Shown piece by piece: positions 20,080 through 64,000 of a stretch of 64,000 bases of DNA. The notes beneath the pieces were generated by a model. It made no database searches. It was not told the origin of the DNA and was given only the letters and a program-made list of their open reading frames with translations. Location of the stretch: positions 1,376,001 through 1,440,000 of the forward strand of contig CAVYRF010000002.1 in assembly GCA_963770895.1 (NCBI GenBank), given 5' to 3'. The translations under genes were made by a program, and so were the position numbers. Source of the DNA: an uncultured Acidobacteriota bacterium (GTDB lineage Bacteria > Acidobacteriota > Thermoanaerobaculia > Multivoradales > UBA5704). The stretch's first letter is position 1. Each line of letters begins with the position of its first letter.

Positions 20080-21735
<1,656 letters not shown>

Positions 21736-23005: not shown

Positions 23006-23023
23006 GATCTGCCTTCCTGATGG

Positions 23024-23791: not shown

Positions 23792-23892
23792 AGGACGAAC
23801 GCCACCAGCGGCCGGAGCTCCCAGGCTCCTGCGGGCGGTGGCAGCGGTGCGCGCGGCTGGAGCGGGATGATCTGCGGTCCTGACGCACCCGC

Positions 23893-24543
23893 TCAGACAT
23901 CGAGCTTCTCATCCACGATCATCACCACAGACATCTGCGGCCCGTCGATCTGGTACACCCGCGCGCCGGGACGGCTGAGGCCCTCGATGGAGGAGCGATC
24001 CGCCGCCGGGATCGCCGGCATTGCCGGGATCGCCGCGTTGGGGGCCGGACCGGCGGCGTGCGCCCAGCCGAACGACCTGGGCTGCGCCGCAAGGCTGGCG
24101 GGGGTGGCGCCGCCGGAGTCCAGAGCCCGCAGCGCCGGTGCCAGGGTGCCACCACTCCCCAGGGGATGCCAGGTGCGGTCGGAGCCGCACAGCAGCGCCA
24201 GGGCGGTCAGGCTGGCGGCCAGCGCCCAGCGCTTGGCGCCGTGAAAGGCGTGGTGGTCCCTGCCGCTGGTGGCGAGCGAAGCCAGGGCGCCGCGGACGGG
24301 GTGCGGGCGGTTGCGGCTCGCGGTGCGCATCGCGGCCACGGCCAGCCGGGCAGCCGCCACTTCGTCCGCCTCTGCCGCCGGGCTCAGCACCGCCCCCGGC
24401 AGGCGCCGGAAGATCAAGGTCGGGTCGGCGGCCAGCGCCTGCTGCCAGCATGCCTTGCAGCCGCTGTCGAGGTGGCCCAGGGCCGCCTGCCAGCGCGCCG
24501 CGTCCAGGTCGGGGTCGAGATGGCGCCAATCGGGGCAGCTCAT
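23893..24543 (-). CDS. Putative zinc-binding anti-sigma factor
   Basis: MSC...HLDSGCKAC (ZAS-like HxxxxCxxC), central TM segment; translationally coupled to the ECF sigma gene. Confidence 0.65.
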   Translation of the reverse strand: MSCPDWRHLDPDLDAARWQAALGHLDSGCKACWQQALAADPTLIFRRLPGAVLSPAAEADEVAAARLAVAAMRTASRNRPHPVRGALASLATSGRDHHAFHGAKRWALAASLTALALLCGSDRTWHPLGSGGTLAPALRALDSGGATPASLAAQPRSFGWAHAAGPAPNAAIPAMPAIPAADRSSIEGLSRPGARVYQIDGPQMSVVMIVDEKLDV

Positions 24544-36509: not shown

Positions 36510-36542
36510 CGCTTGGCGCGCATCCCCCGTACAATACCGCGC

Positions 36543-38569: not shown

Positions 38570-38601
38570 ACCGCGGCGCCCGAGCGCTTACATTACCGGC
38601 C

Positions 38602-39555: not shown

Positions 39556-39655
39556 CGACCCGCCCCCAGGCGCCGCGCGCCGCTCTCCGGCGCCCCCGCG
39601 CCTCCGCCGGCCGCCACCGCCACCGCCATCACCGCCGGCGGCCCTGACCCTCTCC

Positions 39656-43095: not shown

Positions 43096-43804
43096 CCAAG
43101 CCGCGGGTGCCGGGCCAGCGGTCGCCGTAGGTCGCGCCGGCCACCTGCTCCCAAGCGACTTCCGACCAGGTGGTCAGCCCCGAGCGCCGCAGGTAGCGGC
43201 AGCGGCTGAACGGCAGGCTGCCCGCGGCCAGCTGCCGATCCATGTCGGCGTTGTAGCCCAGCGGCAGGGTCGCCACCAGGCAGCCGCCGGGCGCCAGCTG
43301 CGCGCTCAGGTTGGCGACGGTGCGGGCGATCTTGCCGGGGTCGCGCGGGTCCTCGTCCCAGCCGATGTGCTCCAGGGTCGAAATGCTGACGATCAGGTCG
43401 TACGGGCGGTCGGCGCAAAAGCTGACCGCATCTTCGTTCAGGATCGATCCGCCGCGCTCGAACTTGTCGAGCACCTGATGCCGCACGTCGAAGTAGTGCG
43501 ACAGGACGTTGCCGACCTCCAGCACCCGCCCGCCTTGGCGCCGGCACACTTCGCTCCACACGATCGGGATCTCGACCGCCCGCTCGTTGCTCCACGTCAG
43601 GTTGTAGTTGTGCAGGAAGTAGGCGTGGCGCTCCGGGGCGAGCTCGAACGTGCGGCCCAGCCGCCTGACCACCGGCCGCCACACCGGCGACGTCGCCCAC
43701 AGCGCCGCGATCCGCAGCAGGTAGAGCCAGCCCCGTTCGGCCAGCACCTGCCGCGCCGTGCGCCAGCGGCCACAGGTCGCTTGGGCATCGTAACGGAATC
43801 TCAC
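43073..43804 (-). CDS. SAM-dependent methyltransferase-like protein
   Basis: NERAVEIP, RVLEVGN, YDLIVSISTLEHIG, LAPGG.L..TLP. Confidence 0.75.
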   Translation of the reverse strand: MRFRYDAQATCGRWRTARQVLAERGWLYLLRIAALWATSPVWRPVVRRLGRTFELAPERHAYFLHNYNLTWSNERAVEIPIVWSEVCRRQGGRVLEVGNVLSHYFDVRHQVLDKFERGGSILNEDAVSFCADRPYDLIVSISTLEHIGWDEDPRDPGKIARTVANLSAQLAPGGCLVATLPLGYNADMDRQLAAGSLPFSRCRYLRRSGLTTWSEVAWEQVAGATYGDRWPGTRGLVIGYVER

Positions 43805-43914
43805 GCAGGGGTCCCCGGCGCGCCGTCCGGCCGGGCCGGCCCGCGGGCGCGGCGGCGATCATAGCAGCGGCGGGTGGTCCGGCGCCGCGCAGCTGTGCTA
43901 TCAATCCGAGCCGC

Positions 43915-46227: not shown

Positions 46228-46261
46228 TGCGATCGGCCGCCGGCGCCAGTCCGATCGCCGA

Positions 46262-46681
46262 TCAGGTCACCAGCTCGACCGGCAGCCCCGCCGGCAGCCG
46301 GCGATAGAACTTGCGGTCCGCGGTCACCAGGATCGCTCCGATCGATTCCGCGACGGCCAGATACGACGCGTCATAAAACGTAAGGCCGTTGGCCTTGGCC
46401 AGTGCAACGCTGCGCTCGACGATCCCGAAACCCAAGGGCACCTCACGCAGGCCCAGAGCACAGAGCGCGGTAAGGATCATGGCGGCGTCCGGGCGCTTCA
46501 GACAGAGCACATTGCCGACCTCGTAGACCCAAAGAGGCGGCACGGCCAGCGCGATCTCGCCCTTCCGCCAGCGGCCCAGCAGCTGTGCGGCCGCGGCATG
46601 ACCGGGCTCGGCCGCGGAATCCAAAACCCATTTGAGGATGACCGACGCATCCGGTACGAAGGTCGGCGCAGACTCGCTCAT
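46262..46681 (-). CDS. vapC: VapC-like PIN-domain toxin
   Basis: VPDASVILKW, YEVGNVL, LTFYDASYLAVA, LVTADRKF. Confidence 0.92.
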   Translation of the reverse strand: MSESAPTFVPDASVILKWVLDSAAEPGHAAAAQLLGRWRKGEIALAVPPLWVYEVGNVLCLKRPDAAMILTALCALGLREVPLGFGIVERSVALAKANGLTFYDASYLAVAESIGAILVTADRKFYRRLPAGLPVELVT

Positions 46682-46908
46682 CGAGCGTCACGAAACGAAC
46701 GGATCGTGTCCACGATGTCCTTTGTTGACACGTGAGGGCCTTTCTGGCGCAGCTCCTCGAGCGTGTCGATTGCCCGCTGCTGCCGCACCCTGGCCAGCTG
46801 AGCGCGCAAGGCTTCGTTAGCAAAACGGCTGCGTTCGCCCGCGGGAATGAGCGAGTCCAGGTCCGCTTTGACCGCGTCGTCGAGCACCAGGTTGACCTTG
46901 ACAGTCAT
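46678..46908 (-). CDS. Ribbon-helix-helix antitoxin (VapB-like)
   Basis: Small ORF overlapping the vapC start by 4 nt; KVNLVLDD....LD..IP.GERSRFANEAL; GGAGG RBS. Confidence 0.8.
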   Translation of the reverse strand: MTVKVNLVLDDAVKADLDSLIPAGERSRFANEALRAQLARVRQQRAIDTLEELRQKGPHVSTKDIVDTIRSFRDAR

Positions 46909-47074
46909 GGCGAACCTCCGGAGAGACAATCCGTCAACACAATTCTACCAGATGGCTGGATTCCGATCGATGGAGGAGGTGCTGAAGGCCGGCAAGATCG
47001 TGGGCCGTGTGGGGGCGGCGGCTCGGGATCTTGCCGGCGGGAGCGGTTGGCGAGGCGACGGCCGGGATGGTGGT

Positions 47075-48400
47075 CTAAGAGGCGGCTTTCTGCACGACGA
47101 TGCGGCCGGCTTGCATGACCAGGAGGGGGTGCTCGGTGACGGAGATGTTGGCCAGGGGATCGCCGGGGACGGCGACGATGTCGGCGGCTTTGCCGGATTC
47201 CAGGGTGCCGGTTTCCTGACTGATGCCCAGGAGGTCGGCGGCCGCGGAGGTGGCGGCGCGCAGGGCGGCGGCGGGGGACATGCCGAGGCCGGTCATCAGC
47301 GAGAATTCGCGCGCGTTCATGCCGTGCGGGGAGACGGCCGAGTCGGTGCCGAAGGCGATGCGGACGCCCAGGCGCAGGGCGTTGCGGAACATGTCGCTGC
47401 GCGCCGCCAGAGCGGCCTTGGCTTTGGCGGCGATCACCGGCGGGAAGCGATCGGCCTTGCCGCCGGTCCATTCACCGGCGAGCAGCGTCGGCACCAGGAA
47501 GACGCCCTTTTCTTTCATCTTGGCCAGCGTCTCGGGAGTAAGGAAAGAACCGTGCTCGATCGAATTGACGCCCGCCGCGATCGCCATGCGCGCCGCGATG
47601 TCGCCGTGACAGTGGGCGGCCACCTTGCGGCCCCAGTTATGGGCCTCTTCGACGATGGCGTTCATTTCGGCTTGCGACAGCTCGGGCGCGTCCACCGGAT
47701 CGGTCAGCGAAAGCACGCCGCCCGATGGCATGAACTTGATGACGTCGGCGCCATACTTGATCTGGTAGCGGACGGCGGCGCGGCATTCGTCGGCGCCGTT
47801 GCAAATGCCTTCGATCGGCCCGGAGGGCTTGATGCGCTCCGCCGGCTCCGCCGAGCCGTCGGCATGGCCGCCGGTGGCGCCGATGGCATGCACCGCCACC
47901 AGCATCCGCGGCCCTTCGGTGATGCCGGCGGCGATGGCGTTGCGCAGGCCGAGGTCGATGTAGTCGCCCGATCCCACGTCGCGCACGGTGGTGAAGCCTG
48001 CCTCAAGCGTGCGGCGCGCGTAGAGCGCCGCGTAGTGCGCCTGTTCGGCGGGGAAGCGCATCGCGCCTTCGAAATAGTCGCGATAGAAATTGTCGGAGCT
48101 TTCGAAGCTGAGGTGGGTGTGCGCATCGATGAATCCCGGCAGCAGCGTGGCATCGCCAAGATCGATCACTTTTGCGCCGGCCGGGGCGGTCAGCCCCGTT
48201 CCCACGCGGCTGATCTTGCCGTTTTCCACCAGGACCTCGCCCGGCGAGATCCACTTTTCAGCCTTGCCGTCGAACAGCCGGGCGGCCTTCAGCAGCACCG
48301 CCGCCGGTGCGGCCGGCGCCGGCTGCTGGGCGCGGCCGCTCACCACGGCGGCGGCCAGAGCAACCACAACGGTTGCTGACACCATGATCCTTCGTAGCAT
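47075..48400 (-). CDS. Secreted metal-dependent amidohydrolase (Xaa-Pro dipeptidase-like)
   Basis: LLPGFIDAHTH, GFTTVRD, TGGHAD, GADVIK, VAAHCHG, SIEHG, FGTDS, GK.ADIVAV.GDPL; signal peptide. Confidence 0.92.
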   Translation of the reverse strand: MLRRIMVSATVVVALAAAVVSGRAQQPAPAAPAAVLLKAARLFDGKAEKWISPGEVLVENGKISRVGTGLTAPAGAKVIDLGDATLLPGFIDAHTHLSFESSDNFYRDYFEGAMRFPAEQAHYAALYARRTLEAGFTTVRDVGSGDYIDLGLRNAIAAGITEGPRMLVAVHAIGATGGHADGSAEPAERIKPSGPIEGICNGADECRAAVRYQIKYGADVIKFMPSGGVLSLTDPVDAPELSQAEMNAIVEEAHNWGRKVAAHCHGDIAARMAIAAGVNSIEHGSFLTPETLAKMKEKGVFLVPTLLAGEWTGGKADRFPPVIAAKAKAALAARSDMFRNALRLGVRIAFGTDSAVSPHGMNAREFSLMTGLGMSPAAALRAATSAAADLLGISQETGTLESGKAADIVAVPGDPLANISVTEHPLLVMQAGRIVVQKAAS

Positions 48401-48494
48401 AGGAAGCTCTCCTTGCAGGACAGAAGCTCGGACTCGGGCGATCGGGGCGCGCGTCGCATCTTAGCGCATCGCGATGCCATAATCGGCGCGCTTT

Positions 48495-50963
48495 ATGGCC
48501 CTGCTCCTCTATCTGATTGGCGCCGTCCTGATCGGTCTGGCAGTGCGCTGGTGGCGCCCGCAGCCCGGCTGGCGGGCGCTCGCGGTCTACGCGCTGCTGG
48601 CCGCCGCGTTTTTCGCCGTGCCGCTCACCACGCCGGCGGTGCAGGTGCCGACCGACATCGTCTACCTGGTCCGCCCCTTCCAGGAGATGCTGGCGGCGCC
48701 GATCGAGCCGGCCAATCGCGAGCTGATCGACGTGCCTTCGCAGATGATCCCGTTCCGCGCCCTGGTGCGAAACCGGCTGCTGCACGGCGAAGCGCCGCTG
48801 TGGGCCAACGAGATGGGAACCGGCGGGCCGCTGCTCGGCGACGCCTCCTCGGCACCCTTTTCGCCGCTCGGCCTGCTCACCCTGCCGCTGCCGGCGGTGC
48901 GGTCGCTGCCGGTCACCGCCGCCTTGCGGCTGCTGCTGTCGCTGGCGTTGACCGACGCGCTGCTGTCGGCGCTGGGCGCCGGCCGGGCCGGCGCGGCCTT
49001 CGGCGCGCTGGCCTACACCTTCTCGGTGTTCTCGATCGGCTGGGGCTACCACCCGCAGAGCATGACCATGGCCTGGGTGCCGGGCGTGCTGCTCGGCCTG
49101 ACGCTGCTGCGCCGCGGCGAGCGCGGCGGCTTCGCCGGCCTGATCGTCTGCGCCACCGGCGCCGCCCTGTCCGGCCACCCCGAGACGCTGGCCCACTCCG
49201 CCCTGGGAATCGCCGCGGTCGGCGTCGCGCTGCTCGCCCTGCCCGGCGGCGCACCGCGCCCACGCTACCTGCTGCGCGCTGCAGCGGCGGCGCTGCTGGC
49301 GGCGGGCCTGGCCGCGCCCGCGCTGCTGCCGGTGATCGAGGCCATTCCCGAGGGCGTGCGCAGCGAAATGCTGCGCCGCAACCCCGACCTGCTGCGGCCG
49401 CCCAACTTCGCCGCCGGCCAGCTGCGCGTGCTGGTCGATCCGCTGGTCTTCGGCAGCCCGCGCTACGGCGGCTACCACGGCCCGCTCAACTATATTGAAC
49501 TGTGCAGCGGCTACGCCGGCGGCCTGGCCCTGGCCCTGGCCCTGGCCGCCGCGCTGGCCTGCCGCGGCCGCTACCTGGCGATGCTCGCCGGCGGCGCGGC
49601 CGCCGCCGCCGCGGCCTTTGCCGTCCCGCCGTTCCTGCAGCTGGTGACCGCGCTGCCGCTGTACGACCGCGCCACCAACGGGCGCCTGCGCCTGCTGTGG
49701 GTGCTGGCGCTGGCGATCGGCGCCGGGCTGGGCCTGGAACCGCTCGCCGCCAGCCGCCGCGGCCGCTGGACCGCCGCCGCCTGCTGCGCCGCCGCGGGCG
49801 TCGCCCTGGCGCTGGTCGCGCCGCCCGCCTCGCCCTGGCAGCGCGCCTGGTGGCTGGCAACCCTAGCCGGCTTCGCCGCCACCGCCGCCGCCTTCGCCTG
49901 GCGGGCCGCACGGCCCGCAACCCGTCCCCACCAGCCGATTGCACCGGCCGGGCTGCTGGATACGGGCGGCGGCACCGCCGCCGATTGGCTGCCGTGGCTG
50001 GCCGTGGCCTGCCTGGCGCTGGACCTGGGACTGCTCAACGGGCGCTTCCTGCCGGTGCTGCCGCCGGAGCTCGACCTGTCGCCGCCGCCGGCGCTGCAGG
50101 CGATCCTGAGCGACCAGCGCGTCCCCTTCCGGGTGATCGGCAGCCACTACGACCTGCTGCCCAACCTGGCATCCGTCTACGGCCTGTGGGACCCGCGCGG
50201 CAACGACCCGATGCAGCCGGCGCAAGCCGCCCTGGTCGTCGGCATGGCGTTTCACCCGCGCCCCGGCCAGATCCTGGATGCCGTCCACCCGCCCTACCCG
50301 GTTGCCTTCCTCAGCTATCTTGGCGTGCGCTACATGCTGGGGGCGCATGGCGAAGAGCTCGCCGCCCCCTGGGAGCGCGCCTGGGACCTCCAGGGCGGCA
50401 CCGTCTGGCGCAACCGCGCCGCCCTGCCGCTGTTCTTCATGCCGGCGACCTGGCGCCCGGCGCGCGATCCGGCGGACGCCCTGCGCGCCACCCTGGCCAA
50501 CGTCGACTTTGCCGCCGCCGCGGTGACCGAACCACCCGGCGGGGCGGCCGCTGGCCCAGGCGGCGCCGCCCCCGGTGCAGGCGGCGAGCCAGGACCGCGT
50601 TCCCAACGGGGCAGCGTTCAAATTGCCAGCTTGAAGCCCAACAGCTTCGACCTGGACGTCGCAACCCCCACCGGCGGCCTCGCCGTGTCGAGCGTCGCCC
50701 TGTGCCGCGGCTGGCACCTCACCCTGGACGGCCGCCCTGCCGGCCTGGTGCGCGTCAACGGCGCCTTTATCGGCTTCCTTACGCCTCCCGGCACCCATCA
50801 CGCCGTCCTTGCGTACCGCCCCGCCGGCTGGGTCTGGGGCCTGCGCCTATGCGGCCTTGCCCTGCTCGGCCTCGCCGCGATCACCGCGTCCTCGGTGATC
50901 GCCCGCCACCGCCCGCTCGGCGCACCGGGGTTGTGGTTCGTCTGGAAGACGGCCGCCAGGTAG
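48495..50963 (+). CDS. YfhO family polytopic membrane protein (GT-C type)
   Basis: GEAPLWANEMGTGGPLLGD, SGHPET, GWHLTLDGRP.....VNGAFIG...PPGTHH.VL.YRP + terminal TM. Confidence 0.82.
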   Translation: MALLLYLIGAVLIGLAVRWWRPQPGWRALAVYALLAAAFFAVPLTTPAVQVPTDIVYLVRPFQEMLAAPIEPANRELIDVPSQMIPFRALVRNRLLHGEAPLWANEMGTGGPLLGDASSAPFSPLGLLTLPLPAVRSLPVTAALRLLLSLALTDALLSALGAGRAGAAFGALAYTFSVFSIGWGYHPQSMTMAWVPGVLLGLTLLRRGERGGFAGLIVCATGAALSGHPETLAHSALGIAAVGVALLALPGGAPRPRYLLRAAAAALLAAGLAAPALLPVIEAIPEGVRSEMLRRNPDLLRPPNFAAGQLRVLVDPLVFGSPRYGGYHGPLNYIELCSGYAGGLALALALAAALACRGRYLAMLAGGAAAAAAAFAVPPFLQLVTALPLYDRATNGRLRLLWVLALAIGAGLGLEPLAASRRGRWTAAACCAAAGVALALVAPPASPWQRAWWLATLAGFAATAAAFAWRAARPATRPHQPIAPAGLLDTGGGTAADWLPWLAVACLALDLGLLNGRFLPVLPPELDLSPPPALQAILSDQRVPFRVIGSHYDLLPNLASVYGLWDPRGNDPMQPAQAALVVGMAFHPRPGQILDAVHPPYPVAFLSYLGVRYMLGAHGEELAAPWERAWDLQGGTVWRNRAALPLFFMPATWRPARDPADALRATLANVDFAAAAVTEPPGGAAAGPGGAAPGAGGEPGPRSQRGSVQIASLKPNSFDLDVATPTGGLAVSSVALCRGWHLTLDGRPAGLVRVNGAFIGFLTPPGTHHAVLAYRPAGWVWGLRLCGLALLGLAAITASSVIARHRPLGAPGLWFVWKTAAR

Positions 50964-51779: not shown

Positions 51780-51938
51780 ATGAAAACCAAGCTCCGCATC
51801 AACCGCGACACGCTGCGCCGTCTCGAGAACCCCGAACTTCGCCGCGCCGAGGGCGCCGGCATCTACACGGCCCAGCAGAGCTGCTTCTGTAGCTACAAAG
51901 CGACCGTCTGCCCCACTCTCGTCGCCTGTCCGGCGTGA
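51780..51938 (+). CDS. Putative RiPP (lanthipeptide-like) precursor peptide 1, 52 aa
   Basis: MKTKLRINRDTLRRLENPELRRAEGA-GIYTAQQSCFCSYKATVCPTLVACPA; AGGAG RBS; leader homologous to 59031-59231. Too short for the ORF track. Confidence 0.8.
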   Translation: MKTKLRINRDTLRRLENPELRRAEGAGIYTAQQSCFCSYKATVCPTLVACPA

Positions 51939-52228: not shown

Positions 52229-53140
52229 ATGAGCGATATCGCCCGCTCCGAGGGGGGTCCTGAGGTCTTCGAGGAGCTGCGCGAACGGTGGCAGGGGTCG
52301 ATCGAAATCGGCCGCCTCGAAGAGGCCGAGCAGATCCTGCACCGCGCACTGGAATGGGCTCGCCAGCATGGCGACGAACGACGGATCGACAGCGTCGTCT
52401 GCGTTTTGGCCGCTGTCGCCATCAACTTGGGGTGCGGCGACGCGGAACTGCCCAACCTGCGCGAGATCCTGCTGCGCAGCAGCGATCCGGGCAACTGCCG
52501 GTTGGCCGCCTACTACATCTCGATGCATTACCAGTTTGCCCGCAACTTCAAGAAGAGCCTGTTCTATGCGCGCATCGCCTGCGAGCGCGCCGCACAGCTG
52601 GAGCGGGCCGACCTGATCGCCTTCAGCCGCAACCAGCTGGGCAATGCCCTGCTCGGTGAAAGCTTCGTCGATCGCGCCTGCCACGAATATGAGACGGCGC
52701 TCGGCCTGGTCACCGAAAAGAGCGTCTGGCGAGCCCGCATCCTCAACAACCTGGGCTACTGCCGGGTGCTGCAGAAGCGCTTCGCCGAGGGCTACGCCTG
52801 CCTGTACGAAAGCCTGCGCCTGCTGCGGCGCTTCTCGGCCGAACGATTCCAGATCCTGCCGCGCCTGGACCTGTGCTTCGCCCACCTGGAAACCGGCAAG
52901 CTCGAGCTGGCCAAGCGGCAGGGGATCGCCGCCATCCAGCTGGCGGAACGCATGGGCGACTCGGAAGCGGTCAAAAACTCCCTGTACCTGCTGGGAGAGA
53001 CAGCCAACCTGATGGGCGAAACAGAGATGGCGAGCGAATACTTCACCCGGCTCCAGCGCGACTACTTCCCGGAATCGCCCTACCTGCCTGGATTCCTGCT
53101 CGCCGTAGACGTTCGCAATCTGGTCAACCTTCATGCTTGA
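52229..53140 (+). CDS. Stand-alone tetratricopeptide-repeat protein
   Basis: Repeated TPR-like helices (RNQLGNALL, ILNNLGYC, LYLLGETAN); GGAGG RBS; no signal peptide or recognisable HTH. Confidence 0.8.
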   Translation: MSDIARSEGGPEVFEELRERWQGSIEIGRLEEAEQILHRALEWARQHGDERRIDSVVCVLAAVAINLGCGDAELPNLREILLRSSDPGNCRLAAYYISMHYQFARNFKKSLFYARIACERAAQLERADLIAFSRNQLGNALLGESFVDRACHEYETALGLVTEKSVWRARILNNLGYCRVLQKRFAEGYACLYESLRLLRRFSAERFQILPRLDLCFAHLETGKLELAKRQGIAAIQLAERMGDSEAVKNSLYLLGETANLMGETEMASEYFTRLQRDYFPESPYLPGFLLAVDVRNLVNLHA

Positions 53141-54611
53141 GGACACGCCCATGATCCGCACCGTCAATGGCGCCCGGTCCCTGCTGTCGGCACGCCTGAC
53201 CCGCGCCGTCGCGGTGACGGCGGGAAGCGCGCTGGCGCTCCTGCTGTCCGCGACAGCGGCCCGCGCCGACCACCTCAATGTGACCCTGGGCGGCAACGGC
53301 CAGCTCTATGCGATCGAAGCCGGCACCTACGGCGCGCTGTTCGGCGCACCGGGGACGCAGCCGGCGCTCGCCGGCGGTGCCGCGGCGACGACGCCGGCGG
53401 CCGGCACGCCGGTGCTGGCCCTGGACACCACCCTGCCTGGCGCCGCGCTCCAGCGCCAGCTGGTCCCCACCACCGACGACCAGGCGGTGGACAGCTCGCC
53501 GGCCCTGGTCTATGAGGACGTGTCGCAGACGCTGTTCGCCGTCTGGGTGTCGAGCAGCGATCCGACCAGCTCGGTGCTCAAGATGATCAGCTACAACGGC
53601 ATCCAGTGGTCGCAGCCGATTGAAATCATCGGCAACCCGTACGCCACCAAGACGCCGCCGCAGCTGACGCTGACCCGCGACACCCACAGCGAAACCAACG
53701 CCGCCACCGGCGCCGTGACCCTCCACCGCCGCACCGTGCTGCACGTGGTCTGGTCCGAAAACTCGCTGTCCGGGCTGTATCAGGCCTACTACGCTCCGGT
53801 CATCTTCGAGGACGGCGTGTGGATCGGCACCGTGCCCGAACCCATGCTCCTGAACACCTACGATGCCGCCGAGCAGACGGCGACGGGCGGACCGTTCGCG
53901 ACGCCGCTGGTCTACACCCCGACCGTGCAAGGCGGGCGCGATATCAGCACCGCCATCGCCGGATTCGCTTCGGACGCTTCGGGGCTGGTGACCGCGGTCG
54001 AGCTGGACTTCGTGCCCGAAGAGCTGCGCGACCTGGCCAACGCCCTGCAGGCGGTGGTGCTCGGCAGCGCCAACTTCGGTCAGCCGACCGCGCTGGCCGC
54101 CCAGGCGCAGGCCGCGCTGCAAGCCAACGGCAGCGCGTTTCAGCCTGAAGTGCTGCAGGGGATCGGCAGCGACATGCAGACGCAGATCCTGGGCGGCGCC
54201 CCGGACCAGACCACCTTGGCGTGGAAAACCCGCGCCGTGATCATCGACAGCGGCGTCAAGTTCGCCGCTCGCGGCGTCAAGATCGGACAGCTGGCCCTGG
54301 GAACCCCCAACATCGCCGCTTCGCAAATCGTGGAAATCGTGCCGCCCAACGGCGGTCCCTCGCAGCTGGTCCAGTTCCGCGTCGCTTCGACGCGCCCCTG
54401 GCCGGTGGTGAGCGGCAACAACGGTGTGCAGCTCCTGGTTTCGCCCACCGGCGCCAACCTGATGGCGACCTGGCAGAGCGCCGATGGCAGCTCCGCCTAC
54501 TACACCAACACCCAGACGGACGGCACCTGGAGCGCGGCGCACCAGCTCCAGCTCTCGACCAACTTCAGTCTGGAGCAGGCGCTGCAGATCCTGCAGCAGC
54601 GGGTTTACTAA
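53133..54611 (+). CDS. Secreted hypothetical protein (beta-rich)
   Basis: Signal peptide ending ARA-D; SSPALVYE, WSQPI and GTWS motifs; 8-nt overlap with the TPR gene. Start may be 53151. Confidence 0.7.
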   Translation: MLEDTPMIRTVNGARSLLSARLTRAVAVTAGSALALLLSATAARADHLNVTLGGNGQLYAIEAGTYGALFGAPGTQPALAGGAAATTPAAGTPVLALDTTLPGAALQRQLVPTTDDQAVDSSPALVYEDVSQTLFAVWVSSSDPTSSVLKMISYNGIQWSQPIEIIGNPYATKTPPQLTLTRDTHSETNAATGAVTLHRRTVLHVVWSENSLSGLYQAYYAPVIFEDGVWIGTVPEPMLLNTYDAAEQTATGGPFATPLVYTPTVQGGRDISTAIAGFASDASGLVTAVELDFVPEELRDLANALQAVVLGSANFGQPTALAAQAQAALQANGSAFQPEVLQGIGSDMQTQILGGAPDQTTLAWKTRAVIIDSGVKFAARGVKIGQLALGTPNIAASQIVEIVPPNGGPSQLVQFRVASTRPWPVVSGNNGVQLLVSPTGANLMATWQSADGSSAYYTNTQTDGTWSAAHQLQLSTNFSLEQALQILQQRVY

Positions 54612-56057: not shown

Positions 56058-56762
56058 CTAGAACTCGATCAGCGGCAGGTCCGGCCCCAGGTCGCGCAGG
56101 GCGTTGGCGGTCAGGGCGGGCGCGCCGGCGTGGCGCGCCCATCGTTCGAGAAGCCAGCCGGCCAGGGGGCCGCTGCCGCTGGCAAGAGGCAGCGGATCGC
56201 CGACCCGGAACGGGCGATCCGCATCTGGCTGCCCGCCGGCCTGCAGCGCGGCGATGAGCTCGGCCAGCGATTGCAGCCAGCCGCCCACCGTGGCCAGGTG
56301 GCGCCGCGTCCCGACCGCCGTCAGATCGACGCATGCCGCGCGGGTGAAATTCAGCCGCACGGTGCCGCGCAGGGACTGGCAGTCCACCAGGATCAAGCTT
56401 GCATGGCCGGCCAGGTCCCTGATGGCGGCGCCGCGCAGGGCGCTGCGAAAGCCTTCACAGGAGGCCAGGTCGAACTGCATCCCGGCGCCGCCGGCCTCCG
56501 CCGGCTTGCCGCTACCGCGCGACCAGCCCAGGAAGTAGAGATCCATCAGGTTCGGCAGCTCAAAATCCTGCAATCCGAACCACCGCTCCAGCTCCAGGCC
56601 CGTCACCGCGCCGCCGTTGGCCTGGTCGTGCAGCAGCAGCAGAGCCACCGGCACCGTGAACGCGCCGGCGCCCGTCTGCCTGGACATGGCCTGCATGCGG
56701 CCGAGCAGGCGAAGCTTGAACAGCTGGACGCTGCTGACCGCGATCGCCTGCGTGATCCCCAT
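56058..56762 (-). CDS. Hypothetical protein
   Basis: 234-aa ORF with GGAG RBS and globular-protein composition; no family recognised. Confidence 0.6.
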   Translation of the reverse strand: MGITQAIAVSSVQLFKLRLLGRMQAMSRQTGAGAFTVPVALLLLHDQANGGAVTGLELERWFGLQDFELPNLMDLYFLGWSRGSGKPAEAGGAGMQFDLASCEGFRSALRGAAIRDLAGHASLILVDCQSLRGTVRLNFTRAACVDLTAVGTRRHLATVGGWLQSLAELIAALQAGGQPDADRPFRVGDPLPLASGSGPLAGWLLERWARHAGAPALTANALRDLGPDLPLIEF

Positions 56763-57002
56763 GCCCGTCTCCTCGAAGAAGGCCCCACCGCACCTTCCGT
56801 CAGTCCCACGGCGCCACGCGCTAGTTCAGATTGCGAACTTACATCTTACCGCAGATTGCGAGCCATCAGCGGCAATCCATGGTGCTGACCGCTATGGTCG
56901 TTGGTGGTGCGGGGAAAAAGGGAGGGCGGTCGATCCTGCAGATTCCTCCCTGCAAGGGGCGGGGCGGGCGGTATTGGCACGATGGGTTCGCTACGGCCTG
57001 TG

Positions 57003-57033
57003 GAAAGGCGGCGACCCCCGTGGGGGTCGCCGC
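57003..57033 (-). terminator. Intrinsic terminator downstream of the S53 protease gene
   Basis: GCGGCGACCCC-N4-GGGGTCGCCGC 11-bp stem about 12 nt after the stop, followed by CTTT on the minus strand. Confidence 0.65.
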
Positions 57034-57044
57034 GAGTGTGCGCG

Positions 57045-58844
57045 CTACGGCCAGTTGGCGAGCAGCAGGCCGCCGTCGACCGAGCCCAGGCCGGTCACCT
57101 GATCGTAACCGGGGCCGCAGGAAAAGCCCCGCAGCTTGGGAACGCTGTTGTTGCCGCTGGTGATGTCGTGAAAGATCCGCGGGCTCCTGGCGCTCTTGTA
57201 CTGCTGCGCGGCCAGCTGATAGAGCACCGGATTGGCGTTGCCCTGGCGGTCGCCGGTCTTTTGCACGATGAGCGCCATCAGGCCGGCAAAGGAAGGCGTC
57301 GACGCCGAGGTGCCGAAGACTGCGTAGACGTCGGTGCCGCGCAGCACCACATAGGCGTCGTGGAACGCCGCGCTCAGAGACACGTCGGGAACGTCGCGGT
57401 GGTGGTCGTTGGGCACGCCGCGCGCCGACTGCCAGGAGGGTTTCGGATAGACCTTGCTGGCGCCGCCGCCGGACGACCACAGGCCGGAATCGCCACGCAC
57501 GTTGGCGCTCTCGTTCCAGCCCTCCTCGGGGATATAGGCAATCACCGAGCCGCCGTCGGGACGATTGACGGGACTCCAAAAGGCGCTCCCCTTCCTGCCT
57601 TCGTTGAACTCCGTGCCACCCACGCAGATATCGTAGGGGGTCGAACAGAGGCCGTTGACCGCCAATCCGGTGCCGCGCGCGCTGGTCTGCACGTCGCAAC
57701 CGGAGGCGCCGGAGTCGCCCGAGGAGACGAACGAGGAGATGCCCTGCGCGGCGGCCTGCGACCACATGCTGTTGATGAAGGCAAGCCCCGCCGCGCCCTG
57801 GTCCGCCTCGCACGAGCCGAAGCTGGTGCTCATCACCGGCGCCAGGTTGTTGTCGACGATGTACTGCGCCGAGAGGATGATGCCGTCGGTCGATTGGGTC
57901 GAAGCGGACACCACCACGTCGATGGTGGCGCCGGGGGCCGCCGCACCGGACCACTCCGCGTCCAGATCGGCCTCCAGCTCTTCGTCGCCGCCCAGGTCGC
58001 CAGGATCCGTGCCGTTGTGGACGAGCACCGGCAGATTGCTCACCGGCAGCCAGAAGGCGGAGCGGAACCCTTCCACATCGCTGGTCTTGATATCGGTCCG
58101 CGCCACGATCGCGATCGTCTCGCCGGTGCCGTTGATGCCGCTCTTGAACGTGGGCGAGAGGTCGTAAATCGTTGCGAAGTCGCCGGGCACCATGTAATGC
58201 GCACTGCCCGCGGTGAAGTCAGGCGACAGCTGCACGGCCGCGTGATGCATCTGCAGCGGCTTGTTGTTGAGCGAAACGACGCCGGTGACAAGCTCGGTCA
58301 GGGCGCGCGGCAGCGAAGGGTCGATGGAATTGGCATGGCGCACCACGCCATCGACCTGGTAGTCGTGCATTTCGGTGGCAAAGGCCTGCTCCACCTGCGC
58401 CGCCGTGCCGCTGAAATTGATCCAGCCGCGGCCCTTTGCCACTTCGTCGATGGTGAAGCCGTGCTGCACGAGCCAATCGGTTACAACCTTGAGATCGCGG
58501 TCGTTCAAACCAAACTCCGCGCCGAACTGTTCGGGCGTGAGCCACTGGTGATAGCGGGTTGCAGCCGGGTCGGTGAGATCCGCCAGCAGCTGCTCGAGCC
58601 GGTCCTGGGCGCCGGCCTGCGGTTGCAGCACCAGCACCATCCGCTGCATCGGCAAGGTCGGCGCCGTGCGGCCGATCTCAACCTGGAGCCGTGCGAATGG
58701 CGGAACGTTGCCCGACAGCGTCACGCGGTCGGCGTCATTGATGACGGCGGCGCCGGCGGCAGTCGCGGCGCCTTGTCCAAGGGCCGCCCCAGCGGCGGCC
58801 AAGAGAAGGATTGTCAGCTGGAATGTACGAAAGCTACGCATCAT
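57045..58844 (-). CDS. S53 family (sedolisin/kumamolisin-like) serine protease with pro-domain
   Basis: Signal peptide, pro-kumamolisin YHQWLTPEQFG..FG, EADLDAEW (ExxxD), SSGDSG, VPDVS, GTSASTP, FHDITSGNN, GYDQVTGLGS. Confidence 0.93.
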   Translation of the reverse strand: MMRSFRTFQLTILLLAAAGAALGQGAATAAGAAVINDADRVTLSGNVPPFARLQVEIGRTAPTLPMQRMVLVLQPQAGAQDRLEQLLADLTDPAATRYHQWLTPEQFGAEFGLNDRDLKVVTDWLVQHGFTIDEVAKGRGWINFSGTAAQVEQAFATEMHDYQVDGVVRHANSIDPSLPRALTELVTGVVSLNNKPLQMHHAAVQLSPDFTAGSAHYMVPGDFATIYDLSPTFKSGINGTGETIAIVARTDIKTSDVEGFRSAFWLPVSNLPVLVHNGTDPGDLGGDEELEADLDAEWSGAAAPGATIDVVVSASTQSTDGIILSAQYIVDNNLAPVMSTSFGSCEADQGAAGLAFINSMWSQAAAQGISSFVSSGDSGASGCDVQTSARGTGLAVNGLCSTPYDICVGGTEFNEGRKGSAFWSPVNRPDGGSVIAYIPEEGWNESANVRGDSGLWSSGGGASKVYPKPSWQSARGVPNDHHRDVPDVSLSAAFHDAYVVLRGTDVYAVFGTSASTPSFAGLMALIVQKTGDRQGNANPVLYQLAAQQYKSARSPRIFHDITSGNNSVPKLRGFSCGPGYDQVTGLGSVDGGLLLANWP

Positions 58845-59030
58845 GCCCTGCCTTTCAGACAAGTTGTCGTGATAGCACCACGATATCACCATCGCTGTTT
58901 CGCGATCGCATGTCCCCTCCTGTGGCGCAATTTCGCATCGAGACGCAGGGGAGCTCCGGCGGCCTGCCGCCTGCCCCCAAGCGCCTCGCCCGGACAACGG
59001 CGTCCGCGAGGTCAAGGAAGGGAAAACAAC

Positions 59031-59231
59031 GTGAAAAAGTCCAGGAAGCTGGCCCTGCATCGCGACACCGTGCGCACCCTGTCGGGCTCGGCGCTCACCG
59101 AAGCCAACGGCGCGGGGTACACGATTCAGTTGTGCATCATCCAAACCGTCTACATTACGTGCGGCGTCAGCTGTAACTGCGTCACCCACGGCTGCCCCAC
59201 CCAGGCCGGCGACTGCACGGCGGCCTGCTAG
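59031..59231 (+). CDS. Putative RiPP (lanthipeptide-like) precursor peptide 2, 66 aa
   Basis: MKKSRKLALHRDTVRTLSGSALTEANGA-GYTIQLCIIQTVYITCGVSCNCVTHGCPTQAGDCTAAC; purine-rich RBS before GTG. Hidden at the tail of shadow ORF 56901-59231. Confidence 0.85.
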   Translation: MKKSRKLALHRDTVRTLSGSALTEANGAGYTIQLCIIQTVYITCGVSCNCVTHGCPTQAGDCTAAC

Positions 59232-59305
59232 AAGAAGCCGGCGCGGTGCGCCACGCGGGGAGCTGATCTCCTTCCTTCCACCCCGCCACATCACACTGCA
59301 TCACC

Positions 59306-60270: not shown

Positions 60271-60710
60271 GCGCCACCGCGCTGTACCGCATCGCCGCCG
60301 TGTTGCTGGTGCTCTTCGCGATCGGCCACACCTTCGGCTTTCTGCACTTCAAGCCGCCCACCCCGCGGGCCGCGGCGGTGCGTCAGGAGATGAGCGACGT
60401 GCGCTTCCCCGTGCGGGGAGGCAGCGCCAGCTTCGGCGACTTTTACGTCGGCTTCGGCCTCTCCATCACCGCCTATCTGCTCTTTGCGGCCTTCCTGACC
60501 TGGCACCTCGGCGGCCTGGCCCGGTCCATTCCCCGCGCCATCGGCGCCCTCGGCTGGGCGTTCTGCGCCCTGCAGGTCGCCAGCACGGCGGTGAGCTGGG
60601 TTTTGATCGCGCCGCCGCCGGCGGTCCTGTTCGCGGTGCTGGCGGTCTGCACCGGCTGGGCCGCCGGTCAGGTGCGGGTCGCCACCGCGAGAAGCGAGTC
60701 GCCAAGATAA
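60267..60710 (+). CDS. Small membrane protein (4 TM)
   Basis: ATGA overlap with the SRPBCC gene; LFAIGHTFGF, SFGDFYVGFG, hydrophobic segments. Confidence 0.7.
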   Translation: MSATALYRIAAVLLVLFAIGHTFGFLHFKPPTPRAAAVRQEMSDVRFPVRGGSASFGDFYVGFGLSITAYLLFAAFLTWHLGGLARSIPRAIGALGWAFCALQVASTAVSWVLIAPPPAVLFAVLAVCTGWAAGQVRVATARSESPR

Positions 60711-61384
60711 GGCGTCGCAACCACCCGACCGATGCCCCGCAGCGGCTTGAGCAGAGGATTGCCCTCACCGACGTTGTAAAAGTTGGAGATGGTGGTAAGC
60801 GCCACCGGCTCAAGCCGCGCGTCGCGCAGCGACTGGCGCAGACGGGCGGCAGAAAACATATGCACGTGCGTGGGATCCAGGTGAAACGCCCAACGGCGCC
60901 CCAGCAGCGGACGCGCCAGGCTGCCGGCATTGAGCGTGATCACAAAGAGCTTGCCGCCCGGCGCGAGCGTGCGATAGCAGCTGGCCAACGTCGCCGGATA
61001 GTCCGGCAGATGCTCGATCACGTCCAAAAATGTGATCGCCGCAAAGTATCCGTCGGGGAAGGGAAACGGCGCCTCGGCGCTGGCAGTGACGATCGGCGCC
61101 GACGTCCGCCCGCGTGCCGCCGCCACCGCATGCGGCGACAGCTCGATGCCATGCGGCTGGTATCCCGCCTTTTCCAAGGCCTCCAAAAAGAACCCAAAGC
61201 CCGACCCGATATCGAGTACCCGCCCCCCCTCCACCCCATGCGCCCGCAGCAACCCGATCAGATACGCCAGGTACTTCCGCTTCCCCGGATGCAGCTGAAA
61301 ATACTCGCGCTCAAAGTACCCCGGCCCCTCCGCCACCGAATCTGGCGGCGACGCCGCGCCCGCGTGCCTGTCCATCTCGTTCAC
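60668..61384 (-). CDS. Class I SAM-dependent methyltransferase
   Basis: RVLDIGSGFGFFL, GIELS, FLDVIEHL, LAPGGKL, PTHVHMFS. Confidence 0.92.
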   Translation of the reverse strand: MNEMDRHAGAASPPDSVAEGPGYFEREYFQLHPGKRKYLAYLIGLLRAHGVEGGRVLDIGSGFGFFLEALEKAGYQPHGIELSPHAVAAARGRTSAPIVTASAEAPFPFPDGYFAAITFLDVIEHLPDYPATLASCYRTLAPGGKLFVITLNAGSLARPLLGRRWAFHLDPTHVHMFSAARLRQSLRDARLEPVALTTISNFYNVGEGNPLLKPLRGIGRVVATPYLGDSLLAVATRT

Positions 61385-61464
61385 CCGCGGATGCTAGCAC
61401 GCCCATCCAAAAGCCTTGGGTCGTCACGGACACCCATCCGGCCTGCCTGCGCGGATGGAGGGGC

Positions 61465-63480
61465 TCAGGGCGGGGGGACGGCGGCGAGGCGGGCGCGCAG
61501 ACGTTGGACGGCGGGGTTTTGCGGGTCCAGCTGCAGGGCGCGTCGATTGAGCTGTCTGGCCTGGTCCAGATGGCCTTGCTGGAGGTTGAGGAGGGCGCTG
61601 TTTTGCAGGGCCTGGACGTTTTGCGGGTTGAGGGCCAGGGCCTGGGCCAGGTGGGGAGCGGCCGCGGCGGGATCGGCCAGGGCCAGGTAGACGCCGCCCA
61701 GGTTGGTTTGCGCGTCGTCGGAGGCAGGCTCCAGGAAAGCGGCGCGGCGATAGCAGTCCAGGGCGCGCGCCCAATCGCGGCGGCGGGCGGACAGGTTGCC
61801 CAGGTCGAGCCAGGACAGAAAGTCGCCCGGCGCCACGGCAAGGACCGCTTCGTAGTTGCGGCGCGCCAGGTCGGCATCGCCGCGCGCCTCTGCCAGGCGG
61901 GCCAGGTTGAAGTACACCAGGTCGGCGCGCGGGGCGAATCCGACGACGCGCGGCAACGCCACCGCGAGCGCGAGCGCCAGGCCCCAGGCCAGCACCAACC
62001 GGCGGGCGCGGCTTCCCGGCAGCCGTTCGGCAGGCTGGCGCCGCAGGGCGGCCGCAGCCTGGACCAGCTCCGCAACCGGCACCGCGGCAAGCAGCATAAG
62101 GGCCGGCACGCCGGGCAGCCGATAGCGCGCGAACAGAAAAAAGGCCACCGTCGACAGCATCCACGCGAAGGTCCACACCAAGGGCGGCGCAAACCTGCGC
62201 AGCAAGCCGCGGCGGACAACCAGGTAGAGGCCCAGGGCGGCGAGCAGCGTGACGCCGCCAAATTCGAGCAGCGGCAGGCGGAAGACAGGCGACAAGCCGC
62301 GGACGTAGTAGTAGTCGACGGCGTCGGGCCACTCGTACCAGCTCCAGTACAGCTTGAGCTTGCGCAGCTGCAGCCCGACGAAGGCCGGGACGTCCGCGCG
62401 CGCCCAGGCAAGGCCGCGGCCGAGCCAATAGTTGGATACCTGCGCGGGGGTGAGCGGCCGGCCAAGGCGCTGCTCGGCAAGGCGGGCGGGTTCGCGGCGC
62501 TCCAGCTCGGGCACCTGCTTGCCGGGCACGATCGGGCGGTACGTGCCATCGGCGTGCGGGTTGTTGCCGATGTAGAAATTGACCCCACCCTGGAAGGTCG
62601 TCGGCAGGTAGTCACCACCCAACAGGCCGTTGCGCAGCGCGACCGGCGCCAGGATCAGCACAACCCCGCCCACCAGGGCGATGCACCGCAGCACCGCTGC
62701 ACGAAAGAAACCCGACCGACTGCCTCCGCGCCACGCCGCATCCGCTCCGGCGCTATATCCAGCCGCCTCCTCTCCGGCGGGCGCACCGCGCCTTGCCGCG
62801 AAGGCCAGGGGCAGCACGAAGGGCACGACCAGCAGGGCGTTTTCGCGCAGGAGGGCCAGGATGCCCAGGAGCGTACCGACGACAAACCACGGGCCGGCGC
62901 CGGGTTGCGGCCGGCTCCAGGCGGCTGCCACGGTCCAGAGCAGGAAGCAGACGACGGTGGCGGCGAGCGATTCCTTGAGGAGCTGGACGTCGTAGAAGAC
63001 GAACGGGCCGTAGACGGCGGCCAGCGCCGCCGCGGCCAGCCCCACGCGCTCGCCGGCGGTGGCGCGGCCGGCGCGGTAGAGGGCGTAGCAGCCCGCCACT
63101 CCGCAGAGGATCTGCGCCAGGTAGACCGCATCCAGGCGCGGGCCCACCAGCTTGTAGAGCACGGCCAGCAGGTAGGGGTAGAGCGGCGCCTGAAAAAAGA
63201 CGCCGTGGCCCAGCCAGTCGCCGGCGGCGATCTGGCGCGCCCAGCGGTCGTATTCGTCGCTATCCATCACCAGCTGGGCGACGAAAGGCGCGCCGCCCAC
63301 CGCCGCCCAATGCAGCAGCCGCACGGCCAGCGCCACCCCAAGGATCGCGATCAGCGCCGCCGGCGCGCGCGCACCGCGGCCGCCCCCAGCACCGCCATCG
63401 CCGCCAGCGCCGTACCTTGGCGGCCCGGCCGCCGGTTGCGCGGCAGCCTGGCCGGGTGCGGCTGGGGGGCTGGCGGACAC
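61465..63480 (-). CDS. GT-C (ArnT/PMT-like) glycosyltransferase with C-terminal TPRs
   Basis: MDSDEYD.WA, FQAPLYPYLL, LLKESL, LREN, GGVNFYIGNNPHADG, RYRLP, then TPRs (NLGGVYLAL, ALALNP). Confidence 0.85.
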   Translation of the reverse strand: MSASPPAAPGQAAAQPAAGPPRYGAGGDGGAGGGRGARAPAALIAILGVALAVRLLHWAAVGGAPFVAQLVMDSDEYDRWARQIAAGDWLGHGVFFQAPLYPYLLAVLYKLVGPRLDAVYLAQILCGVAGCYALYRAGRATAGERVGLAAAALAAVYGPFVFYDVQLLKESLAATVVCFLLWTVAAAWSRPQPGAGPWFVVGTLLGILALLRENALLVVPFVLPLAFAARRGAPAGEEAAGYSAGADAAWRGGSRSGFFRAAVLRCIALVGGVVLILAPVALRNGLLGGDYLPTTFQGGVNFYIGNNPHADGTYRPIVPGKQVPELERREPARLAEQRLGRPLTPAQVSNYWLGRGLAWARADVPAFVGLQLRKLKLYWSWYEWPDAVDYYYVRGLSPVFRLPLLEFGGVTLLAALGLYLVVRRGLLRRFAPPLVWTFAWMLSTVAFFLFARYRLPGVPALMLLAAVPVAELVQAAAALRRQPAERLPGSRARRLVLAWGLALALAVALPRVVGFAPRADLVYFNLARLAEARGDADLARRNYEAVLAVAPGDFLSWLDLGNLSARRRDWARALDCYRRAAFLEPASDDAQTNLGGVYLALADPAAAAPHLAQALALNPQNVQALQNSALLNLQQGHLDQARQLNRRALQLDPQNPAVQRLRARLAAVPPP

Positions 63481-63483
63481 TAG

Positions 63484-64000
63484 TTATGCCTGGGCGAAGA
63501 ATCCCCGCACGGCGGCGCAGACCGCGTCGACCTCTTCGTCGGCCAGCTCGGGGTACATGGGCAGGCAGAGGACCTGCGCCCCGGCGGCGGTGGCGACGGG
63601 CAGGTCGCCCGCGTTGCCCACGTCGCGCGCGCTGCCCGCGGCCCGCGTGCGGCTGGCGAGAGCGGGCTGGAGGTGGAGCGGCGAGGGGTAGTGAATGGAG
63701 CTGCCGATCCCCTGCTCGGCCAGGTGGCGCATCAGGTCGTCGCGGCGGGCGGTGCGGATGGTCAGCTGGTGGTAGACGGAGATGTTGCCCGGCGCGTCAG
63801 GCGGCAGCGCCAGGTCGCCGATCCCGGCCAGGGCGGCGTGGTAGCGCGCGGCGAGCTCGCGCCGGCGGGCGTTGTCGGCTTCGAGGAGTGCCAGACGGCA
63901 GTTGAGGACGGCGGCCTGCAGACTGTCCAGGCGGCTGTTGACGCCGATGGCGACGTGGGTGTAGCGCGCGGTCTGGCCGTGGTTGGCCAGCAGCTTGACC
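63484..64000 (-). CDS. DegT/DnrJ/EryC1/StrS PLP-dependent sugar aminotransferase, C-terminal part (runs off window end)
   Basis: NHGQ..RY.H..IGVNSRLDSLQAAVL, VYHQLTIR, GI.SSIHYPSPLHLQP, VLCLPMYPEL. Confidence 0.92.
   Translation of the reverse strand, partial: VKLLANHGQTARYTHVAIGVNSRLDSLQAAVLNCRLALLEADNARRRELAARYHAALAGIGDLALPPDAPGNISVYHQLTIRTARRDDLMRHLAEQGIGSSIHYPSPLHLQPALASRTRAAGSARDVGNAGDLPVATAAGAQVLCLPMYPELADEEVDAVCAAVRGFFAQA

Follow-up and report, generated by a model that had tools for sequence, protein, structure and literature searches.

What is the 66-codon gene that lies beneath two long open reading frames (ORFs) in the genome of an uncultured Acidobacteriota bacterium, and what becomes of its product? 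The gene, which we call precursor 2, is on the plus strand of contig CAVYRF010000002.1, within the 64,000-nucleotide stretch analysed here (the window; all positions are counted from its first letter). It encodes a short leader followed by a core crowded with Cys and Thr, and we put at about 58% the probability that it is the precursor of a class-I-type lanthipeptide, matured in trans. Lanthipeptide-like is the fitting label, rather than proven LanA, because precursor 2 scores below the cutoff of the curated leader model NF038153 and has no lanthipeptide enzymes in its neighbourhood. The gene and its parts are as follows.

59031..59231, plus strand: precursor 2 gene, 66 codons, with a GTG start at 59031 and a TAG stop at 59229-59231
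59014..59022, plus strand: AAGGAAGGG, a Shine-Dalgarno-like site seen in the sequence 8 nt ahead of the GTG
59031..59114, plus strand: precursor 2 leader, residues 1-28, with the motif LxLxRx5L (L7, L9, R11, L17), ending in G27-A28
59115..59228, plus strand: precursor 2 core, residues 29-66 (38 amino acids (aa)), with 7 Cys, 6 Thr, 1 Ser and a C-terminal Cys

Precursor 2 is a genuine coding small gene, as its GC content at third codon positions (GC3), an exactly matching recorded protein and its homologues show. Over 59030-59239 its frame has a GC3 of 0.85-0.90, with codon positions 1 and 2 at 0.40-0.55, and the long antisense ORF at this site has a low-GC phase at its third codon positions. 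The 66-residue product, (M/V)KKSRKLALHRDTVRTLSGSALTEANGAGYTIQLCIIQTVYITCGVSCNCVTHGCPTQAGDCTAAC, is present in exact form in the NCBI and ENA protein sets, and a JGI protein 97% identical to it has also been called. In a six-frame translation of the window, the hidden Markov model (HMM) of the family described below recovers it at E 8.4e-19, and its homologues begin alike, with M/V-K-K. The first-pass annotation of this DNA had credited the gene with a ribosome-binding site of its own, which is the AAGGAAGGG listed above, and had placed it under a long antisense shadow ORF, which is real. Its expectation that annotation could miss the gene was wrong, the exact protein being already in the NCBI and ENA sets. 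Two shadow ORFs in fact overlie precursor 2, one on each strand. Both arise from the gene of an S53 peptidase, which is divergent from precursor 2 at a distance of 186 bp and whose start at 58844 bears a signal peptide.

57045..58844, minus strand: S53 (sedolisin/kumamolisin-type) secreted peptidase gene (Pfam Pro-kuma_activ, 2.9e-31; start read from the sequence)
57045..59294, minus strand: shadow ORF of 749 aa, the S53 peptidase gene extended upstream past its real start at 58844
56901..59231, plus strand: shadow ORF of 776 aa in the same frame as precursor 2, its upstream part antisense to the S53 peptidase gene

Accidental long ORFs are common at 66-75% GC. With two of them covering the site, and with no promoter-like site found upstream of precursor 2 on the plus strand, precursor 2 might itself be an ORF that arose by chance in GC-rich DNA, or else a decayed, unexpressed gene. 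We hold this to be very improbable, given its GC3, the Shine-Dalgarno-like site at the right distance, the more than 100 family members with the same start, leader and length, and the same-position genes of other genomes in which the leader is kept and the core varies.

One further element follows the stop codon.

59239..59253, no strand given: short GC hairpin with a stem of 5-6 bp, 3' of the precursor 2 stop

The downstream hairpin had also been noted in the first-pass annotation. The stem exists, but its value as a terminator is unsupported: there is no T-run on the plus strand, a terminator-like site is listed for the minus strand only, and the fold of the 72 nt that follow the stop does not surpass that of shuffled sequence (z 0.23), which equals it in 112 of 200 cases. 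With a fold at shuffle level and no T-run, we rejected the hairpin as a plus-strand terminator of precursor 2. The fold after the stop of precursor 1, the second family member in the window, is likewise no better than shuffles.

A six-frame search of the window with the family HMM returned exactly two members, the next best score being E 0.26. Besides precursor 2, this is the following gene.

51780..51938, plus strand: precursor 1, which belongs to the leader family of precursor 2 and lies 7.1 kb upstream of it; 52 aa plus stop, with 4 Cys in its core

Precursor 1 was found by a motif scan. It has AGGAG 8 nt before its ATG, matches the family HMM at E 7.5e-16 and is present as an exact protein in the NCBI, JGI/IMG and ENA sets; all four of its Cys pair with upstream Ser/Thr.

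A profile of precursor 1, precursor 2 and a third protein, P0003, was searched against 1.84 billion representative proteins. It was matched by 123 proteins at E ≤ 1e-3, and the family comprises at least 120 short proteins. Apart from P0003, the 122 matches are nearly all 50-91 aa long, with a shared leader and variable Cys/Thr-rich cores; four are longer (99-1071 aa). After the M/V-K-K start, the leader follows the consensus KLxLxRETLRxLxxxxLxxAxGG. A conserved leader with a hypervariable core among relatives, which the first-pass annotation had proposed as a check, is thus what the search returned. The alignment used below holds 117 sequences, namely the two window peptides (precursor 1 entered one residue short), P0003 and 114 matches. 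Eight matches were left out of it: P0088, P0089, P0091, P0132 and P0177, which are N-terminally extended; P0181, whose match fell into two stretches; P0117, a 1071-aa repeat protein that is unrelated; and P0085. For tests on leaders and cores P0003 was dropped as a near-duplicate, leaving 116 sequences. In the 117-sequence alignment P0070 and P0080 are 53% and 46% identical to precursor 2 and share its C-terminal C-x-T-x-G-C-P-T ... C-T-x-x-C pattern. The close relatives of precursor 1 (P0069, P0177 and P0187) share the core start G-(I/V)-Y-T-A-Q ... C-F-C with it, and P0085, a 132-aa ORF, holds two complete leader-core units in tandem, each preceded by an NHNETLxRNKEEEKKR stretch.

In its sequence the leader, which is hydrophilic, resembles curated class I lanthipeptide leaders and has the features of a cleavage signal for a peptidase-containing ATP-binding cassette (ABC) transporter (PCAT). 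Gly at -2, Gly, Ala or Ser at -1 and hydrophobic residues at -4, -7, -12 and -15 make up the double-glycine pattern of PCAT export leaders. When the 116 leaders were right-aligned at the predicted cut, position -2 was Gly in 108, position -1 was Gly or Ala in 106 and position -4 was Ala or Val in 109, while positions -7, -12 and -15 were Leu, Ile, Val, Met or Phe in 96-97%. The pattern is complete in precursor 2 (G27 at -2, A28 at -1, A25 at -4, L22 at -7, L17 at -12 and V14 at -15), although its leader ends in G27-A28 followed by G29, not in G-G. In the family, 56 of 117 leaders end in GG and 43 in GA. Precursor 2 would accordingly be a candidate for cleavage after G27-A28, at a double-glycine-type site, and the core boundary drawn in the first-pass annotation, which lies at the same place, is reasonable.

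The LxLx[KR]x5L motif occurs in 105 of the 116 leaders, with Arg at the fifth position in 90 and Lys in 15; precursor 2 is among those in which Arg replaces Lys. In the portion of Walker et al. 2020 (PMC7268733) available to us, class I LanAs of Bacteroidetes are described as carrying LxLxKx5L in place of FxLD, with many of these leaders ending in Gly-Gly and a C39 protease often present in the cluster. NF038153 (lant_leader_L1a, a class I lanthipeptide leader model) was matched by 98 of the 117 members at E ≤ 0.1, and NF038158 by 7. When 57 of the 114 matches were scanned singly against the NCBIfam curated cutoffs, at least 12 passed that of NF038153, including the relatives P0070 (23.9 bits) and P0080 (22.8 bits). 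Language-model neighbours in the ESM Atlas include clusters with PF28317 (Lant_leader_dom), at scores of 0.83-0.86 that count as leads only.

The composition claimed for the core by the first-pass annotation (38 residues, 7 Cys, 6 Thr and 1 Ser, with Cys at the end) matches letter for letter. In core numbering, Cys lies at 7, 16, 20, 22, 27, 34 and 38, Thr at 3, 11, 15, 24, 29 and 35, and Ser at 19. Every Cys has exactly one Ser/Thr 3-5 residues upstream (distances of 2-6 were tested), which gives a unique pairing that uses every Ser, Thr and Cys. From this layout we infer that rings could form in the core, the hypothetical set being T3-C7, T11-C16, T15-C20, S19-C22, T24-C27, T29-C34 and T35-C38. 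A complete pairing of this kind arose in 27 of 5000 shuffles in which Cys was fixed and in 6 of 5000 full shuffles.

The same order runs through the family. Lanthionine rings normally have their Ser/Thr upstream of the Cys partner, and for each Cys of the 116 cores a Ser/Thr of its own was sought 2-6 residues upstream, with 200 shuffles per control. The observed cores paired 666 of 688 Cys, and 96 of the 116 paired completely. Full shuffles paired 412 ± 11.5 Cys, with a mean of 6.6 complete cores, and Cys-fixed shuffles 503.6 ± 9.9 (maximum 543), with a mean of 16.2 (maximum 27). When partners were sought downstream instead, the observed cores paired 482 Cys and only 7 were complete. Close relatives of precursor 2 do not carry the result: among the 48 cores less than 35% identical to its own, 39 pair completely (shuffle mean 7.0, maximum 12). 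The order from Ser/Thr to Cys has a direction and departs far from chance expectation. Ser plus Thr equal or exceed Cys in all 117 cores, and these residues belong to the core, the leaders having 3 Cys in 3364 residues and the cores 17% Cys, 15.5% Thr, 7.4% Ser and less than 1% Lys. None of the 116 cores contains a lipid-II-binding motif. Lanthionine formation explains the one-to-one layout of Ser/Thr before Cys, which is not needed for disulfides, metal binding, sactionine links or azoles.

To place the family in its genomic surroundings, genomes were scanned with the pattern KL[ATS]L[HNS]RDT[LVM]R, taken from a 14-sequence alignment. Seven of the 15 stretches found were confirmed as related loci (L001-L007), with up to 10 kb on each side, all outside the window's own genome. 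All seven come from metagenome-assembled genomes of Acidobacteriota (five Thermoanaerobaculia, one Holophagales and one unclassified). In all eight loci examined, the window included, the precursor stands without a recognisable maturase; two precursor genes are present in three of them (the window, L001 and L006). Same-position genes show how the two parts of the peptide have changed: L002 and L004 are identical at 27 of 29 leader residues and L006 and L007 have near-identical leaders, while the cores of both pairs have diverged. The neighbourhoods differ among the loci and contain a hydantoinase/oxoprolinase and an esterase (L002, L004), a MOP-type flippase, an M28 peptidase and a reprolysin-like peptidase (L006, L007), and an integrase and a lytic transglycosylase (L003). 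L003 has a MacB/FtsX-type permease only, and no C39-peptidase ABC transporter. In the syntenic loci L006 (6902-12078) and L007 (3-1192) the precursor genes flank a MOP/MATE-like (Polysacc_synt) transporter gene, and in L006 a nonribosomal peptide synthetase-like gene of adenylation-thiolation-thioesterase (A-T-TE) organization ends 76 bp before the first precursor; this arrangement could reflect a link to export or to another pathway.

Several results weigh against a lanthipeptide, and we give them here together with the alternatives on which they bear. Since the core of precursor 2 was itself part of the profile used to gather the family, the composition of what was collected is biased towards Cys and Thr; the shuffle controls keep composition, and the statistics ignore the shared ancestry of the sequences. 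Precursor 2 itself scores 13.5 bits against NF038153 (E 0.06, residues 1-27; cutoff 22 bits), and precursor 1 has no NCBIfam match at E ≤ 1. Among the window ORFs (54 translations searched against Pfam, 11 against NCBIfam), none of the 54 is a lanthipeptide dehydratase, a LanC-like protein, LanM, YcaO, a C39 peptidase or an ABC exporter. The 72 ORFs of the seven related loci gave no match to lanthipeptide, SPASM-type radical S-adenosylmethionine (rSAM), YcaO or C39-ABC families, and LanKC and LanL were likewise unmatched among both the 54 and the 72. Nor does any of the 12 window neighbours queried (48.5-61.4 kb) recur in the seven related loci.

Some of the evidence would suit a peptide made on ribosomes and modified after translation (RiPP) with a double-glycine leader and another chemistry, either rSAM thioethers of the TIGR04149 kind (sactipeptide or ranthipeptide) or YcaO azol(in)es, with the enzymes encoded elsewhere. 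TIGR04149, a model of rSAM-modified GG-leader RiPPs, is matched by 27 of the 117 members at E ≤ 0.1, and one member, P0121, passes its cutoff (26.6 versus 25 bits). Within the cores, the strongest single positional enrichment is that of Ser/Thr directly before Cys (-1; 0.39 versus 0.24 expected, z 9.8), which also fits azole-forming systems, and cores rich in Cys, Ser and Thr also suit azole formation. GG leaders are moreover shared by rSAM, YcaO and unmodified bacteriocin systems, and occur with rSAM and YcaO clusters in Bacteroidales, according to the section of PMC10352776 that we could consult. However, precursor 2 has no TIGR04149 match at E ≤ 1, and the lanthipeptide leader model is matched by 98 relatives against 27 for the rSAM model. 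There is no SPASM-type rSAM or YcaO gene in the window or the seven loci; the only Radical_SAM ORF of the window (5499-6974) is lysine-2,3-aminomutase-like and lies 52 kb from precursor 2. Lanthionine rings depend on just such an arrangement as the cores show, one Ser/Thr for each Cys in N-to-C order and 3-5 residues apart, which azole or sactionine chemistry does not call for. We therefore consider another chemistry unlikely.

The leader could also belong to an unmodified secreted peptide resembling class II bacteriocins, in which it would act in export and cleavage only and the Cys would be disulfide-bonded, metal-binding or free. The hydrophobic -4/-7/-12/-15 pattern and the G-G/A end suit such a peptide, as does the absence of a modifying enzyme nearby in all eight loci. 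A PDB sequence search with the family profile found nothing significant, its best match being pre-carnobacteriocin B2 at a non-significant E of 0.46. However, a PCAT exporter is likewise absent nearby, so the missing neighbours do not favour an unmodified peptide over the other readings. The Cys counts of the cores are even in 52 and odd in 65 (n = 117), with 7 in precursor 2; there is no preference for even numbers, and an all-disulfide fold is therefore no constraint on the family. The directional pairing, complete upstream in 96 of 116 cores and downstream in 7, would have no role in a disulfide fold. An unmodified peptide is, in our judgement, improbable.

The lanthipeptide reading, which the first-pass annotation had drawn from the core, is the best of those considered, on a balance that is mixed. 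The leader type, the lack of an even-Cys preference and the unique Ser/Thr-Cys pairing support it, while precursor 2 falls below the NF038153 cutoff, lacks a nearby maturase and carries a kind of double-glycine leader that is not class-specific. As there is no maturase near precursor 2, thioether formation is something that we infer, and maturation would have to be in trans. The leader would recruit a class-I-type dehydratase and cyclase (LanB- and LanC-like) encoded elsewhere in the genome. The seven Ser/Thr would then be dehydrated and the seven Cys thiols added to them, giving up to seven (methyl)lanthionine rings, of which two, T15-C20 and S19-C22, would be interlocked. Class I dehydratases require a suitable kind of glutamyl-tRNA, according to the abstract of PMC9993889. 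A peptidase-containing ABC exporter would finally cut after G27-A28 and export the bridged 38-residue product, which would probably serve as an antimicrobial or signalling peptide.

The genes around the precursors offer no conserved partner. Six lie between precursor 1 and precursor 2, encoding a tetratricopeptide repeat (TPR) protein, a 492-aa secreted protein, a Zn-ribbon protein, a DUF4440 protein, a 234-aa hypothetical protein and the S53 peptidase. The TPR protein (52229-53140) has TPR matches only, apart from HaaT at a negligible 14.6 bits (cutoff 1125). The gene of the 492-aa protein (53133-54611, plus strand), whose start overlaps the end of the TPR gene, belongs to a conserved family with 59 relatives at 33-79% identity, and no Pfam or NCBIfam family matched it. 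Its structural model is a beta-propeller with a four-helix insert (predicted local distance difference test (pLDDT) 75.8), with weak fold matches to lectins and sialidases (TM 0.2-0.3). The conserved hypothetical protein of 234 aa (56058-56762, minus strand) has 9 relatives at 45-55% identity, all unnamed, and a poor model (pLDDT 63.8) with no fold match at E ≤ 0.001. A homologue of the S53 peptidase is absent from all seven related loci, and nothing indicates that this enzyme acts on the peptide. We rejected these genes as a conserved partner set that would include a local maturase, since none recurs beside relatives of the precursors. A shared sigma-54-type site before both precursors was dropped as well, its spacings being off by one when judged by eye.

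Downstream of precursor 2 lie genes for an ArsR regulator, an SRPBCC protein, a LIC_13387-family membrane protein, a methyltransferase, a PMT_2/TPR glycosyltransferase and a DegT aminotransferase. The precursor region is surrounded by two blocks of envelope-glycan genes (37591-50963 and 60668-63999), which hold GT2, GT4, two PMT_2-type and one YfhO-type membrane glycosyltransferases, methyltransferases, as well as a DegT aminotransferase; a 746-aa ORF at 39656-41896 has high GC3 and no family. Further away, the lysine-2,3-aminomutase-like rSAM ORF runs about 190 bases into the start of an ATP-grasp ORF of the D-Ala-D-Ala-ligase-like kind (5499-8034, plus strand; starts uncertain). A type II secretion or type IV pilus-like cluster (12778-23908, minus strand) comprises a prepilin-type protein, a 931-aa secretin with a C-terminal cohesin domain, a PilN-like protein, a GspE-type ATPase, a GspF-type platform protein and a second Secretin_N protein. 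A 1245-aa ORF without a family on the minus strand (33807-37673) overlaps a UbiA prenyltransferase ORF on the plus strand (36513-37463, GC3 0.91), and is probably part gene and part shadow.

Both the leader type and the chemistry proposed for precursor 2 are already known; what is unusual is that the precursor is alone in all eight loci. A wider picture, which we offer tentatively and think doubtful as it stands, is that Acidobacteriota hold a dispersed library of stand-alone class-I-type precursors served in trans by one promiscuous enzyme set. The genes may be scattered through unrelated neighbourhoods, with the same LxLxRx5L ... G-G/A leader and different Cys/Thr cores. In a bolder version the maturase may be of a kind not yet recognised, none having been seen in the eight loci. 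Within the literature covered, from which subscription papers were largely absent and which included parts of PMC8692599 and PMC8960859, we found no description of stand-alone class I precursors, in general or in Acidobacteria, and none of an S53 peptidase as a lanthipeptide protease.

Acidobacteriota abound in soil, yet hardly any peptide natural product of theirs has been characterised. If the lanthipeptide reading of precursor 2 is true, its product would be among the most densely bridged lanthipeptides, with seven rings in 38 residues and no Ser, Thr or Cys left over. Because the family genes sit away from recognisable enzymes in all eight loci, cluster-based mining would not find them; the RODEO survey covered only seven genes on either side of a LanC domain, as far as the consulted portion of PMC7268733 describes it. 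A leader-based search, by comparison, yields more than 100 distinct cores, which, if the reading holds, would form a ready natural substrate set for probing the promiscuity of one class I enzyme pair.

Among the known systems closest to precursor 2 are the class I precursors of Bacteroidetes (NF038153, PF28317). Precursor 2 shares with them the LxLx(K/R)x5L motif, the G-G/A end, the leader length and a Cys/Thr-rich core in which each Cys stands behind its own Ser/Thr. It differs in that the fifth motif position is Arg rather than Lys, as in 90 of the 105 motif-bearing leaders of its family, in its score below the model cutoff, and in that its seven genomic relatives are all Acidobacteriota. 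The Bacteroidetes clusters, in the part of PMC7268733 at hand, carry LanB, LanC and a C39 protease, which are absent from the window and the seven loci.

The rSAM RiPPs of TIGR04149 (Cytophaga-Flavobacterium-Bacteroides (CFB) group) and the GG-leader bacteriocins of Bacteroidales have the double-glycine export leader in common with precursor 2, and the weak TIGR04149 matches of 27 of its 117 relatives extend the likeness. The GG-leader rSAM and bacteriocin systems are associated with PCATs in the passages of PMC10352776 available, whereas precursor 2 is unmatched by the model at E ≤ 1 and has no rSAM/SPASM or PCAT gene beside it.

Lantibiotics of the nisin type, which are also class I, resemble precursor 2 in having Ser/Thr N-terminal of the Cys partner, at spacings of 3-5, and in the one interlocked pair predicted here (T15-C20 with S19-C22); in nisin it is the last two rings that are interlocked. 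Precursor 2 has the LxLxRx5L leader and no FxLD box, and its seven predicted rings, packed into 38 residues and using up every Ser/Thr, would exceed those of nisin in density.

The prochlorosins, class II lanthipeptides of marine cyanobacteria, offer a parallel in organization, with precursors remote from the enzyme, a conserved leader and highly diverse cores. Many of their precursors are encoded far from their LanM and so escape neighbourhood-based mining, and their leaders are of the Nif11 type, as given in the sections of PMC7268733 consulted; precursor 2, in contrast, has a leader of the class I L1a kind, and its enzyme, if there is one, is unseen. By analogy, the parallel is a likeness in possible working, not in membership: like a prochlorosin, precursor 2 may be one of many diverse cores presented by a common leader to an enzyme encoded at a distance.

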